Source: Macrostomum lignano
Lineage: Eukaryota
Assembly: GCA_002269645.1 (NCBI GenBank)
Contig: NIVC01000522.1
Coordinates: forward strand, 186,001-250,000
DNA: 64,000 bases
Direction: 5' to 3'
The notes under the pieces were generated by a model, which was not told where the DNA came from, did no database searches, and saw nothing but the letters and a program-made list of their open reading frames with translations. The position numbers and the translations under genes were made by a program. The first letter of the stretch is position 1. Every line of letters starts with the position of its first letter. This document shows positions 44,198 to 60,747 of this stretch, piece by piece.

Positions 44198-44818
44198 AGT
44201 AGAAGGCATGAGGGGGCTTTTGGGACAAAATTTTTCACCTCCTCCATAATCCACCTAAATCCATCCATATTATCCCTGACAGAATCAGAAAAAAAGGGGG
44301 GTCGCACTCGCTCCGAAAACGTCCTCCATAATCCACCTAAATCCATCCATATTATCCCCGACAGAATCAGAAAAAAAGGGGGGTCGCACACGCTCACAAA
44401 ACGTCCTCCATAATCCCATTAAATCCATCCATATTATCCCTGACAGAATCAGAGCAGGTGTCCACTGATACCTGTTATGTTCACTGACACTGACATCCAC
44501 CCATAGCATCTTCGAAACAATCAGAAAATAATCTGCATTCTTCTCCCCATGGGGCCCACATTCAATTCGCAACGTGCTACCAGATCCCAAAGACTTTAAA
44601 TCATCAGCGCAGGGTCCTTACCCTTTGAAAAAAAAATTAATTTCTCAATAAAAATGTTTCCAGTTGTCTCTCCAGGTTCCTATTATACTCAGCCTCATCC
44701 ATTGTACAAATCCAAGTACCGATGCAAACTAGAATGCAGCGAATACATGAGAAAATATTGGCCCGACGTTGATATCAATGTCCCTAATATTAATCAAGCA
44801 CTTAAATCTCACTGGTTT
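44198..44818 (+). repeat. Left terminal inverted repeat (621 bp), containing ~2.6 copies of an 82-bp unit
   Basis: Reverse complement of 60128-60747. The internal unit starts at 44241, 44323 and 44405. Confidence 0.97.
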
Positions 44819-44896
44819 TATGAGTATGGAGTAACCTATGTAAAAGATTACGACAGCTACTATAACTTTGCAGAAATCATTAAGCAATTGCGTTAA
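44654..44896 (+). CDS. 80-aa hypothetical protein straddling the left TIR boundary
   Basis: AATAAAA-ATG context. The paralog at the right end shows a synonymous-biased divergence pattern. Confidence 0.7.
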   Translation: MFPVVSPGSYYTQPHPLYKSKYRCKLECSEYMRKYWPDVDINVPNINQALKSHWFYEYGVTYVKDYDSYYNFAEIIKQLR

Positions 44897-44914
44897 AAAA
44901 CATACTGAGTTCAT

Positions 44915-45139
44915 TTATTCGCAAGTATATTTACATAAAACAGGAGGAAATAAGGAGGAAAGAGCAGACAATGAGTGTGCAGGGCTATCCGGCTGAGAAT
45001 TTTCTTCCGCGACGTGCAAGCTTAGTTGCAAGGCTGGAAATGAATAAGGTAGAGAAAGAACAAGAAATTGTAGATCCTCGCACAATCCAAAATCGATATT
45101 CTTCGGATCCAGAATAATATTGATTTTCCTCCCGGTCAT
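44915..45139 (-). CDS. 74-aa hypothetical viral protein
   Basis: CACAAA-ATG start (MTGRKINIILDPKNIDFGLCEDLQFLVLSL...). The stop TAA is part of AATAAA. Converges on the TIR ORF. Confidence 0.4.
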   Translation of the reverse strand: MTGRKINIILDPKNIDFGLCEDLQFLVLSLPYSFPALQLSLHVAEENSQPDSPAHSLSALSSLFPPVLCKYTCE

Positions 45140-45153
45140 TTTGTGAACAGCAC

Positions 45154-45715
45154 TTTCCTGTATTGTCAAGAATTCCTGTATTGTCAGGAATTGGCACGAG
45201 TTTAAAAAAATCCTGGAGATCCAGGAAAGTGTTTAGAAGACTACTATGAGTAGCTTACATTGATAAAATCCTGGAAAAAAATTTAGTAAAAGACTTTCCT
45301 GTATTGTCAGGAATTCCTGTATTGTCAGGAATTGGCACGAGTTTAAAAAAATCCTGGAGATCCAGGAAAGTGTTTAGAAGACTACTATGAGTAGCTTACA
45401 TTGATAAAATCCTGGAAAAAATCCAGTAAAAGACTTTCCTGTATTGTCAGGAATTCCTGTATTGTCAGGAATTAGCACGAGTTTAAAAAAATCCTGGAGA
45501 TCCAGGAAAGTGTTTCGCAGACTACTATGAGTAGCTTACATTGATTAAATCCTGGAAAAAATCCAGTAAAAGACTTTCCTGTATTGTCAGGAATTCCTGT
45601 ATTGTCAGGAATTGGCACGAGTTTAAAAAAATCCTGAAAAAAATCCTGGAGATCCAGGAAAGTGTTTCGAAGACTACCATGAGTAGCTTACATTGATAAA
45701 ATCCTGGAAAAAAAT
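45154..45715. repeat. ~140-bp tandem repeat x4 inside the element
   Basis: TTTCCTGTATTGTC recurs at 45154, 45295, 45435 and 45575. Confidence 0.92.
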
Positions 45716-46075
45716 GGTTGATAACTAAGAAGTGAATCTTCATCAGCAAAAAATGATCGGCGTAGTTCGTCAAACACCATTTCGGTTCTCATGGCGTAGT
45801 TGCGATCCTGGGTCTCCATGGCCGCTCTTGAACGAATTCGCTGGTTCTCAACTTTTTCATTGAAGAAATTGTGGAGAACTTCTTGAATTCGCTCTGATGC
45901 CTGTTCGTCGGCATCTAATCCTTCAATAAGGCGACCGTGGAGATTTTCTAGGTCGGTCGGGTAGAACGTAATTTTTTGTGAACTAAAAACAAAGATTTAT
46001 TTAAAATAAGAGATTTTTCAATTCTTAACACAGGATAGAATTTCAGTAAGTAAAAAATGAATAAACTTACAACAT
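45688..46075 (-). CDS. Spliced 99-aa hypothetical viral protein (exon 1 46071-46075 ATGTT; exon 2 45688-45982)
   Basis: ATGTT|GTAAGT...TCTTTGTTTTTAG|T joins in phase 2 to a stop-free 98-codon frame: MF-SQKITFYPTDLENLHGRLIEGLDADEQASERIQEVLHNFF...SRILSM*. Confidence 0.7.
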
Positions 46076-46344
46076 AATGAAATCAGCAGCCACAACGGTG
46101 CAGTATTGCGTGACGAAGAACGTGAGCGAGCAAAATGAGCTGAATTTTCTTGCTTGCTTTAACTAGCTTCCGAGCGATCGATTCCCTACACCCGCTTCCT
46201 TCCCTCCAGTTGTCAAAGCGGAAAGGAATGCACGCGTGGAACAGGGCTGCGCTCCCTCAGCAAATAGCAGTTACCCCACCCCTTTTCAAAATGCAGCTGT
46301 TGCGTTTGGCTAGGGCTGAGAATAATAGTTAAGCCCTTCCCGAT

Positions 46345-58313: not shown

Positions 58314-58337
58314 ATATTTTTTTATGGGTGAAAAAAA

Positions 58338-59201
58338 ATGGAAGCTATAGCCGAAAGACTAAACAACATTGTTTCACACTCTAAGGAGAGCATTCCTATT
58401 ACAATAACTGGGCGAATTAATGACTCAAACGGGATATTTATTCAAAAATTAGAGCAGGCGATTCGCCTGGATCCAGGTGCTAATTACCATGTCTATCTTA
58501 ACGACTTCACTGGTTGGTCAAACGTTCCCAATGTGTCGGCAGCAAATAATAAGTTTTATTACAAATGGAAAGGTGCAGCAGCAGAACCTGTGGTATTCCC
58601 TGTGAGCACGCAAAGTGTGGATACCTACAATTACTTTCTAGAAAACGTATTTACTAAAAGAGGCCATTTTGAGACACCTGATGCGAGTAAGCCAGATAAA
58701 AAATTGTTCCCTGTCAAACTATCCTATGATCTCACTGTAATGAGAGTGGTCATGCAAGTTCACAAAGATGCGGAGGTTGAGTTTAAAGATGACACTTGGT
58801 ATAGGGAATTGGGATTCGTGAAGAAAGTTTATAAGGCAGAATCCACAGCGCGGACTGTCACTCAAGCGACGGGGGCCGTTAGCATGGCCCGGGAAAGTGT
58901 ACGCGGTTTGTTCTTAGCACCCAATATAGCAGACATTGTAAAGGGTTTGAATATTCTAATCAGAACTAATCTCAGTCTTGATTGGGTATTTAAGGGAAAG
59001 CGAACTAATATTTTGTACAACATCTCCAACTCTGTAGCTGGAGGACAGATGGTGGTAGAGAAACCAAATCCAGTGAAAAGAGTTGTATTGAGTAATAAGG
59101 AGATTTACGAGATTGTGCTACAGTTTGAGACTGAAGATGGGATGGGTGTTGATTTCAACGGTGAAGAGTTTGTATTGACGTTGATCATTGAGAGAATGTG
59201 A
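58338..59201 (+). CDS. Minor capsid protein (penton), 287 aa, intact
   Basis: SNVPNVSAANNKFYY and C-terminal IVLQFETEDGMGVDFNGEEFVLTLII are typical of Polinton mCP. Confidence 0.85.
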   Translation: MEAIAERLNNIVSHSKESIPITITGRINDSNGIFIQKLEQAIRLDPGANYHVYLNDFTGWSNVPNVSAANNKFYYKWKGAAAEPVVFPVSTQSVDTYNYFLENVFTKRGHFETPDASKPDKKLFPVKLSYDLTVMRVVMQVHKDAEVEFKDDTWYRELGFVKKVYKAESTARTVTQATGAVSMARESVRGLFLAPNIADIVKGLNILIRTNLSLDWVFKGKRTNILYNISNSVAGGQMVVEKPNPVKRVVLSNKEIYEIVLQFETEDGMGVDFNGEEFVLTLIIERM

Positions 59202-59499
59202 TGTTAAAATAACTAAATATTTTATTTCAGTTCTATTTCGAATTTTTAGTATATTTTTTCTAGTCATATTACTTATTAGTAGGCAACCTCACGCTTTTTG
59301 GACTGACCAAGCGTTATTTTTTTTCTAACCAGTATTTAGTGAAAGGATTGAAAACACAAAAGAAATCGGACACAAAAAGATAGTCTGTGCTCAGTCTATT
59401 GTTTTATTATGTCAAAAAGTTGGTTAACTTCGCAAGTATTCGCACATAACAAACACAAGTCTGTCATTAGTATTTCTCAGAAAAAAAAGCTTTTTTTTT

Positions 59500-60000
59500 G
59501 CACAGTTGAATTCGTGCGAATTCCTGTTAAGACAGGAAATGGCGCGAATCCAACTGCGCACTAGTCTTTCTCAGAAAAATGCTTTTTTTGCACAGTTGAA
59601 TTCGTGCGAATTCCTGTTATGCACAAGATTTTTACGAACGTTCGTAAAAATCATGTAACCACTGAGAGCCGCTTTATGCTGCACATGATTTTTACGAAAG
59701 TTCGTGAAAATCATGTAACCAGTGGGAATCGAACCATGCGGGGCAGACTGAGACCGGTTTTGGGCTTTTTTTTGCCCTCGTCAGTCAGTCATAGCCACGC
59801 GAGGTCGGCTCCACCTCTAGCCAGCTGAGTGGAACTGCTATTTATACGCCCTTGCACCAAGTCCTTGCCTTGCACATGGCGACATTTTCTAGTCCACCAT
59901 GTGAGGAATTCGCGCCATGTTCAAATAGCTTTACTATCAGTAAGCTATCGCTTACAAATGTAACTAATACGAGCCGCTATATGCTGCACATGATTTTGTC
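59500..60000. other. Non-coding palindrome/direct-repeat cluster of the element
   Basis: 34-bp palindromes at 59623-59656 (perfect 26-bp core) and 59683-59716. TTGAATTCGTGCGAATTCC occurs twice. TATA box on the minus strand at 59839-59846. Confidence 0.8.
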
Positions 60001-60055
60001 AGTATTTTTAGATCTTGCGTCTGCACTCTACAGGGTACAACCGTGTAGTTGGCTA

Positions 60056-60292
60056 CTACAACTGCCTTATAACTTCAGCAAAGTTATAATAGCTGTCAAA
60101 ATTGTTAATGACTACTCCGTGTTTTTCAAACCAGTGAGATTTAAGTGCTTGATTAATATTAGGGACATTGATATCAACGTCGGGCCAATATTTTCTCATG
60201 TATTCGCTGCATTCTAGTTTGCATCGGTACTTGGATTTGTACAATGGATGAGGCTGAGTATAATAGGAACCTGGAGAGACAACTGGAAACAT
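60056..60292 (-). CDS. 78-aa hypothetical protein straddling the right TIR boundary (paralog of 44654-44896)
   Basis: First 55 aa identical to the left copy; diverged but homologous C-terminus. Confidence 0.7.
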   Translation of the reverse strand: MFPVVSPGSYYTQPHPLYKSKYRCKLECSEYMRKYWPDVDINVPNINQALKSHWFEKHGVVINNFDSYYNFAEVIRQL

Positions 60293-60747
60293 TTTTATTG
60301 AGAAATTAATTTTTTTTCAAAGGGTAAGGACCCTGCGCTGATGATTTAAAGTCTTTGGGATCTGGTAGCACGTTGCGAATTGAATGTGGGCCCCATGGGG
60401 AGAAGAATGCAGATTATTTTCTGATTGTTTCGAAGATGCTATGGGTGGATGTCAGTGTCAGTGAACATAACAGGTATCAGTGGACACCTGCTCTGATTCT
60501 GTCAGGGATAATATGGATGGATTTAATGGGATTATGGAGGACGTTTTGTGAGCGTGTGCGACCCCCCTTTTTTTCTGATTCTGTCGGGGATAATATGGAT
60601 GGATTTAGGTGGATTATGGAGGACGTTTTCGGAGCGAGTGCGACCCCCCTTTTTTTCTGATTCTGTCAGGGATAATATGGATGGATTTAGGTGGATTATG
60701 GAGGAGGTGAAAAATTTTGTCCCAAAAGCCCCCTCATGCCTTCTACT
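60128..60747 (-). repeat. Right terminal inverted repeat (620 bp)
   Basis: Matches the left TIR throughout by manual comparison, except T8 (60310-60317) versus A9. Confidence 0.97.

Follow-up and report, generated by a model that had tools for sequence, protein, structure and literature searches.

Does the large element in this stretch of Macrostomum lignano DNA represent a virus that integrated recently, a transposon that moves only within the germ line, or a provirus that is already dead? The stretch, referred to below as the window, is 64,000 nucleotides long (G000:C522:186001-250000 of a 764-Mb assembly), and the element occupies its positions 44198-60747. An earlier note, made from the sequence alone, had described it as a complete and recent endogenous adintovirus or Polinton. 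We think it likely that the element is a provirus that integrated recently, that it belongs to the capsid-encoding Polintons/Mavericks (Eupolintoviridae) and that it is one of about 290 copies of a young family. The analysis shows the boundaries of the element, its insertion at a locus that homologous contigs have without it, its gene set, the fold of the capsid protein and purifying selection among the copies.

A young insertion that is absent from homologous contigs

The element is 16,550 bp long, begins with AGTAG and ends with CTACT. Its limits are set by the following features.

44192-44197, unstranded: target-site duplication, left copy, CACACA (window sequence; the empty sites hold a single CACACA)
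44198-44818, plus strand: left terminal inverted repeat (TIR), 621 nt, starting with AGTAG and including 2.6 units of an 82-bp repeat (TIR alignment, repeat scan)
60128-60747, minus strand: right TIR, 620 nt, ending with CTACT (TIR alignment)
60748-60753, unstranded: target-site duplication, right copy, CACACA (window sequence)

When the two TIRs are aligned there are no mismatches and a single insertion or deletion (indel), which falls within a run of A. Each contains 2.6 units of the 82-bp repeat, and a diverged extension reaches to about 44896 on the left and about 60056 on the right. The GC content of the element is 38-44%, compared with about 43-59% across most of the satellite-rich host DNA on its left. 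Across the assembly there are 578 matches to the terminal 22-mer (286 forward and 292 reverse) and none to its reversed control, so that chance occurrence is excluded.

On contigs C2246 and C488 both flanks are joined, with a single CACACA and no element. Collinearity of these contigs with the window begins at about 17.7 kb of the window and continues beyond its end, with 87-99% identity, and the locus is therefore represented by three versions (C522, C2246 and C488), one of them filled. For three further insertions the element is missing from every homologous contig found (1, 2 and 2 contigs), and with the window locus included the insertions are absent from their homologues in 4 of the 4 cases tested. 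On the other side, there is one pair of contigs (L018/L019) in which both members have the same insertion flank. In run X2 a contig begins exactly at 60748 and is preceded by 150 bases outside the window alignment, as expected of an empty site. Over 12.9 kb of the element 11 substitutions are specific to this copy; over 9.7 kb of flank, 103 are specific to the contig. Because of this difference, and because no substitution separates the two TIRs, the insertion is young, whether it is allelic or lies in one duplicated region. Both of these arrangements are possible, since three versions exceed the two of one diploid.

The earlier note had read the AG...CT ends, the 6-bp duplication and TIRs of about 620 bp with one homopolymer indel from the sequence, and had argued for a recent insertion; these points are borne out here. 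It had also suggested that the insertion may be polymorphic. The empty site that it predicted does exist, on C2246 and C488, but with three versions of the locus alleles and duplicated regions are not separated.

Outside the element, about 200 bp to its right, there is a repeat resembling a miniature inverted-repeat transposable element (~60958-61717), with inverted ends of about 165 nt and 425 candidates in the genome; at this position both empty homologues hold different sequence. On the left, window positions 4800-42300 consist of host DNA full of varied tandem arrays, with units of 8 to 47 nt, and three collinear versions of it were assembled.

Gene content and the fold of the capsid protein

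The pieces of the window were searched with Pfam profiles at the profile cut-offs, and catalytic motifs were checked with 19 patterns. Together with open reading frames (ORFs) and comparison with sister copies, this gave the following map, in which the frame breaks are those of the window copy as assembled.

44654-44896, plus strand: 80-amino-acid ORF that starts within the left TIR, open, without a Pfam match above cut-off; a diverged twin lies at the right end
44890-46340, unstranded: variable accessory region with a 140-bp unit repeated 3.9 times (repeat scan, sister-copy comparison)
46345-46833, minus strand: phospholipase A2-like protein (PLA2), 162 amino acids, open frame, YCGP and HD motifs (Pfam, motifs)
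46863-47899, plus strand: RVE integrase, 3 of 3 catalytic motifs, one frame break near 47240 (Pfam, motifs)
47916-48359, plus strand: protein with an adenovirus pX-like motif, one frame break near 48250 (Pfam)
48487-52341, plus strand: protein-primed B polymerase (pPolB), frame breaks near 48500, 49160, 49910 and 50975 (Pfam, motifs, relatives)
52415-52803, plus strand: adenain-like maturation protease, one frame break near 52675 (Pfam below cut-off; His and Asp motifs)
52793-53494, minus strand: predicted two-helix membrane protein, frame breaks near 52865 and 52905 (sequence features)
53604-54346, minus strand: coiled-coil protein, one frame break near 53870 (weak coiled-coil matches only)
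54366-55161, minus strand: A32-like packaging ATPase, Walker A and B, frame breaks near 54725 and 54450 (Pfam, motifs)
55362-55745, minus strand: small protein, about 115 amino acids in a sister copy, broken near 55600-55740 (sister-copy comparison)
55756-56999, minus strand: Gln-rich protein, one frame break near 55955 (ORFs, sister copies)
57030-58313, plus strand: capsid gene, two frame breaks (double jelly-roll-like Pfam match below cut-off; fold of the unbroken ORF of a sister copy)
58338-59201, plus strand: probable penton (minor capsid protein), 287 amino acids, open frame (position after the capsid gene, ESM Atlas look-alikes)
59202-60127, unstranded: right subterminal non-coding region (59620-60127 is at the opposite end in sister copy C2068)
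60056-60292, minus strand: 78-amino-acid twin of the left 80-amino-acid ORF, with a different C-terminus (ORF list)

Matches above cut-off were obtained for PLA2 (PF08398, 3e-13), pX (PF05829, 3.8e-7) and the exonuclease part of pPolB (PF03175, 1.2e-9). Below cut-off were rve (2.9e-5), endonuclease VII (1e-4), the double jelly-roll-like profile (7e-4), adenain C5 (3e-3) and the A32 ATPase (3e-3). The unbroken frames of sister copies exceed the cut-offs for the integrase (rve, 2.1e-8) and the ATPase (A32, 3.3e-6). Eighteen of the 19 motif patterns were matched in the window pieces; the nineteenth, for the A32 loop, was a mis-spaced pattern, and the motif is visible in the sequence. Catalytic motifs are thus present as assembled in the integrase, vOTU-like part, exonuclease, polymerase, protease (His and Asp), ATPase and PLA2. 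Pfam matches of the membrane protein were discarded as composition effects, as were the weak matches of the coiled-coil protein to SMC-like, NheC and ZapD profiles. Among the genes identified in the element there is no gB-like fusogen; PLA2 and pX-like genes are present instead.

The polymerase, which is in five pieces as assembled, consists of an N-terminal region, a vOTU-like part with Cys and His, Exo I-III, an endonuclease VII-like insert and Pol A-C, a domain order read after PMC11161782. We infer that the N-terminal region is the terminal protein. The Cys and His motifs of a putative OTU domain lie at the expected places, as judged with patterns fitted to the sequence. Among 8000 scored sequences 5580 are relatives of the polymerase palm, and the best 120 of these are 41-52% identical; the named sequences at the top, which are 42-46% identical, belong to molluscs, cnidarians, a crinoid and a nemertean. 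Compared by sequence with solved structures, the palm piece gave chance matches only.

The capsid was modelled from the unbroken 428-amino-acid ORF of a sister copy, which is 96-99% identical to the capsid pieces of the window and whose own polymerase gene is interrupted by a long interspersed nuclear element (LINE). Folded from the single sequence, this ORF gave no confident model (predicted local distance difference test, pLDDT, 31). With an alignment of 84 sequences the pLDDT rose to 92.3 and the predicted template modelling (TM) score was 0.89. The best matches in the PDB were PBCV-1 Vp54 and the Sputnik capsid (E ~1e-16, TM 0.55-0.65), with the SGIV and mavirus capsids also found, and matches in BFVD were capsids of virophages, adomaviruses and MELD-viruses. 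On this model the capsid protein of the sister copy is a double jelly roll, which agrees with the fold that the earlier note had expected for the capsid part of the virion genes. Of the 84 aligned relatives, 79 match PF21738, and a sequence-profile search with the capsid matched no solved structure. Close relatives number 9 by word search (44-77% identical); clusters of relatives number 23 with a threshold of E<=1e-30 and 497 when this is relaxed to E<=0.001. The named relatives are beetle proteins, about 21% identical; looking up the clusters of 10 capsid relatives yielded no informative names. A scan of IMG/VR with capsid patterns gave 58 pattern hits, none of which was confirmed. The product of 58338-59201 has no Pfam or NCBIfam match; its look-alikes in the ESM Atlas are viral clusters (0.98), and together with its position this suggests that it is probably the penton.

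As a whole, the Pfam and motif matches, the frames of sister copies and the capsid fold uphold the assignment to Polintons or adintoviruses made in the earlier note. Its claim of a complete gene set stands in that the listed genes were found; most of them are split as assembled, a matter to which we return below.

A family of about 290 copies

The family was searched genome-wide with gene-sized queries, and 40 matches per query were scored. There were 329 candidates for the polymerase, 329 for integrase/PLA2 and 470 for capsid+penton, and among the 40 scored of each identity was 99-100%, 89-100% and 96-100%, respectively. The genome-wide count proposed in the earlier note was made from the termini, and because 286 and 292 of these were counted the size of the family is about 290 copies. 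The element is also contained in 20 runs from 7 studies, all of the same organism, with 62-72% of the sampled words present.

Twelve sister copies have both ends and are 14.0-16.7 kb long. The 6-bp duplication is perfect in six of these, matches at 5 of 6 positions in one and is lacking in five. Among the sister copies compared, only C166 and C2068 have TIR arms that are near-identical, as in the window, and the dating of copies from their TIR pairs is confounded by differing counts of 82-bp units. The segment between the left TIR and PLA2 differs among copies: the accessory region of the window (44890-46340) is nearly whole in 2 of 16 compared sister loci, and the rest hold other sequence. 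The right subterminal segment 59620-60127 of the window sits at the opposite end in C2068, a swap that would fit pairing of the TIRs during replication or recombination.

Several copies have features of their own. In some (L062:1598-2275, L035:1430-2107) a 225-amino-acid ORF without a Pfam match takes the place of the 140-bp-repeat region. Others (L039, L043, L027) have been struck by other elements: a LINE within the polymerase, with endonuclease, reverse transcriptase and RNase H; a tyrosine-recombinase retroelement; and a truncating reverse-transcriptase element. The copy L033/L034 (G000:C106:768703-783551) has a flanking duplication of about 145 nt rather than 6 bp and is absent from both homologous contigs. 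At G000:C1652:29391-39065 two inverted capsid-penton modules are separated by 5.3 kb and may represent a fold-back defective element, and pairs of TIRs only 3.6-8.7 kb apart (G000:C1584:127639-135629, C33:768924-777592, C105:570682-574517 and C544:473028-476600) point to internally deleted, non-autonomous derivatives. Near a truncated sister copy, L028:2690-9062 (G000:C759) holds an uninterrupted ankyrin-repeat ORF of 1688 amino acids followed by caspase-domain ORFs, which may be a host gene or cargo of another element.

The same genome holds a second Polinton-like family, in which an 830-amino-acid Prim-Pol/PriCT-2/D5 primase-helicase faces its own B polymerase (L031:4929-7967, G000:C543; L104-L118); about 40 scored matches are 89-97% identical. 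On C543 the primase-helicase gene adjoins a polymerase palm and a virion module that come from the window's family, and this chimaera arose by recombination or mis-assembly. A swap of replicase within the window's family was considered and rejected, since the primase-helicase that lies beside a truncated polymerase in one copy belongs to the second family.

The frame breaks of the window copy

As assembled, the window copy contains at least 15 frame breaks in 10 genes. There are four in the polymerase, two each in the membrane protein, ATPase and capsid, one each in the integrase, pX-like, protease, coiled-coil and Gln-rich genes, and at least one in the small ORF; PLA2, the penton and the 80-amino-acid ORF are open. 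The breaks are copy-specific, in that 70-100% of the covering copies differ from the window at these sites. The exception is the polymerase break near 50975, which was seen in the sister comparison but fell below this threshold. We rejected the idea that a programmed break is common to all polymerases of the family, since the open stretches of different copies overlap across all four window breaks.

The element has a substitution to small-indel ratio of 11:10, compared with 103:12 for the host DNA that flanks it (Fisher p=2e-4), and the density of indels is alike in element and flanks. In 29 copies, comprising 237 kb, there are 665 private substitutions and 233 small indels, and the two are uncorrelated (rho 0.17, p=0.37). 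No stop codon lies inside the in-frame matches of the window copy, and over 12 frames private stops number 10 in total across all copies. In the 12 listed of 69 comparisons, contigs assembled from four short-read runs are longer or shorter than the window at the break sites. Based on the excess of indels relative to the flank, the lack of correlation between indels and substitutions, the absence of in-frame stops and these differences in length, it is likely that most of the frame breaks are consensus errors of long-read assembly in a high-copy repeat. The true window copy is therefore probably intact or nearly so.

Purifying selection among copies

The ratio of non-synonymous to synonymous change (dN/dS) was determined with a single natural frame as the reference and with no codon variant counted more than once. 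For variants shared by at least two copies it is 0.06 in the capsid (10 non-synonymous and 43 synonymous), 0.07 in the polymerase palm, 0.10 in the ATPase, 0.13 in the integrase, 0.15 in PLA2, 0.22 in the penton and 0.23-0.52 in the remaining frames. For private variants it is 0.12-0.60. Variation among the copies is under purifying selection, and this includes the capsid. Since the values for shared variants are low, and that of the capsid is 0.06, most of the diversity of the copies arose in lineages that were replicating and depended on the capsid. In PMC8097293 the case that vertebrate Mavericks reinfect is built on purifying selection on their morphogenesis genes.

Discussion

The gene families represented suggest how such an element would propagate. 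The linear element would be copied from its AGTAG ends by the protein-primed polymerase, and the terminal protein would be released by the vOTU domain; according to PMC11161782, a polymerase with terminal-protein, vOTU, exonuclease and palm parts replicates the ends by protein priming. Strand displacement and pairing of the TIRs would keep these alike and could swap subterminal segments. The RVE integrase would insert the copy and thereby create the 6-bp duplication. The ATPase would pack DNA into a capsid built of the double jelly-roll protein and penton, which the protease would mature, and PLA2 and the pX-like protein may aid membrane entry, as proposed after PMC8502044.

A number of observations weigh against reading the element as a provirus of a young and functional family. 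The dN/dS values are a crude count against one reference frame, and low values could reflect selection in free virus, if a diverse population existed before a single invasion. The short-read contigs blend all copies and cannot speak for the window locus. Of the 233 copy-specific indels 72 lie in runs of at least 3, compared with 22% of bases in such runs, and since only this many do, these indels are not typical homopolymer errors. None of the 16 sister copies that span the polymerase has it in one open frame, the longest frames being 321-806 of about 1280 amino acids, although this is expected with about one break per kb over a 3.9-kb gene. Open frames are found among covering copies in 16 of 24 cases for the capsid, 18 of 24 for the penton, 16 of 18 for PLA2, 7 of 18 for the integrase and 8 of 16 for the ATPase, in a non-random sample of copies chosen as best matches to the window. 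Contigs L018 and L019 share one insertion flank, so there is some redundancy in the copy counts. Finally, a matching duplication is missing from 5 of the 12 sister copies, several have unlike arms and some are interrupted or cut by retroelements, and because of these defects many copies are truly defective or mis-joined.

Were the frame breaks real, the window copy would, like most vertebrate Mavericks, be a dead provirus: one that decayed once it had inserted, or a defective template that was copied in trans. Decay predicts several substitutions per indel together with nonsense codons, whereas the window copy has a ratio of about one to one, no nonsense in the matched frames and no TIR substitutions, and private variants across copies still show the constraint given above; we regard this explanation as quite unlikely. 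Spread only within the germ line, as a self-synthesising transposon whose capsid genes persist only through the recency of the invasion, has a more substantial claim. Maverick transcription was undetected in nematodes according to Widen et al. (10.1101/2022.07.12.499685), and the IMG/VR scan confirmed no relative. However, the shared variants of the capsid reveal a constraint equal to that on the polymerase, which is the kind of selection on morphogenesis genes that PMC8097293 takes as a sign of reinfection. We therefore consider confinement to the germ line possible without preferring it, and lean, with moderate confidence, towards the idea that the recent ancestry of the family passed through particles. 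The stronger proposal of an ongoing germ-line epidemic, with about 290 mostly coding-intact proviruses, most on one homologue only, that still spread by particles and recombine with the second Polinton-like family, is tentative, and on balance we doubt it.

The insertion itself might not be allelic. The three collinear versions of the locus would then be duplicated copies, homeologous or segmental, with the insertion fixed in one of them. Three versions, which here differ by 1-10%, outnumber the two alleles of one diploid, and two other insertion sites are likewise found in three versions, but a pooled or polyploid sample with true polymorphism gives an identical picture, and the X2 contig, which shows the empty form, cannot separate an allele from a duplicate. 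This arrangement is a minority prospect that deserves weight, and even if it holds the insertion is later than the split of the versions. An origin of the element as a chimaera of the assembly, or as a contaminant virus that was linked to host sequence, is very improbable indeed. Mis-joins across a 16-kb repeat would yield copies without matching duplications, such as the five mentioned above, but the flanks rejoin in the empty homologues with exactly one duplicated hexamer, and the 20 runs of 7 studies of this one organism hold most of the sampled words. Our preferred reading thus remains a recent provirus, allelic or not.

This type of element is already well described, and a single copy is ordinary. 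With about 290 young copies, this tight family ranks high among known Polinton loads and is not a new kind; large loads are known in corals (PMC11131425). What is added here is the number of young copies, purifying selection on the capsid and the absence of the insertions from their homologues at every locus tested. The question posed by animal Polintons is whether they form particles that infect anew or are confined to movement within cells. Particles of animal Polintons have not been observed according to PMC8097293, and the only hint of them reported in PMC8502044 is incidental co-purification. A genome this rich in recent copies makes its host well suited to answering the question by observation. 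If the epidemic were real, it would offer a ready system for natural virions of an animal Polinton and for separating reinfection from intracellular transposition. A more general warning is that, in long-read assemblies, a live family of high-copy proviruses can be mistaken for a dead one on account of its frame breaks.

Comparison with known systems

Judged by its sequence, the element is a Polinton/Maverick: pPolB, an RVE integrase, long TIRs and a 6-bp duplication are all found. Most of the features examined for Eupolintoviridae, the family renamed from Adintoviridae (PMC12451622), are also present, namely the capsid fold, the adenain protease and the FtsK/A32 packaging ATPase. Intact capsid-encoding Mavericks with 6-bp duplications have been described in many animals (PMC8097293, PMC8502044). 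A literature search found no paper that combines Maverick, Polinton, insertion polymorphism and virions, and a species-level description of the family may still exist.

As reported for adintoviruses in PMC8502044, the element is about 16 kb long and has TIRs, a 6-bp duplication, a pPolB with a putative OTU domain, an RVE integrase, adenain, an FtsK/A32 ATPase, a double jelly-roll capsid, a probable penton and PLA2 and pX-like accessory genes. In the Alpha modules described there, however, PLA2X is a single gene, whereas here PLA2 and the pX motif are two ORFs on opposite strands, and the capsid is only about 20% identical to those of the named insect relatives found, its closest relatives being 44-77% identical. 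The genera are marked by PLA2X (Alphadintovirus) and by GasderminX/cupiennin (Betadintovirus), with the PolB class given by identity to reference polymerases. By sequence, PLA2 points to an Alpha-type module, and the weak, partial PF03175 match, with none on the palm piece, points away from an archetypal Alpha polymerase.

The present family resembles the nematode Polintons (10.1101/2023.08.22.554363; 10.1101/2022.07.12.499685), for which strain-specific insertions, nuclease inserts in pPolB and exchange of modules between families are reported, but it has PLA2 and pX-like genes in place of a gB-like fusogen. With the intact vertebrate Mavericks of PMC8097293 it shares TIRs, a 6-bp duplication, a length near 17 kb and strong purifying selection on capsid genes. 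It differs from them in number: according to that source vertebrates have at most 38 intact copies per genome, the figure given for young copies in fish, and genomes with about 280 copies hold defective ones only, whereas here about 290 pairs of termini belong to one family, with 89-100% identity among the scored matches and with copies that are broken as assembled. The polintoviruses of stony corals (PMC11131425) resemble it in their hundreds of endogenous elements, invertebrate-type genome and paralogous expansion; those elements form many clusters at 90% amino-acid identity and are expressed, while the present elements, known from DNA, form one tight family.

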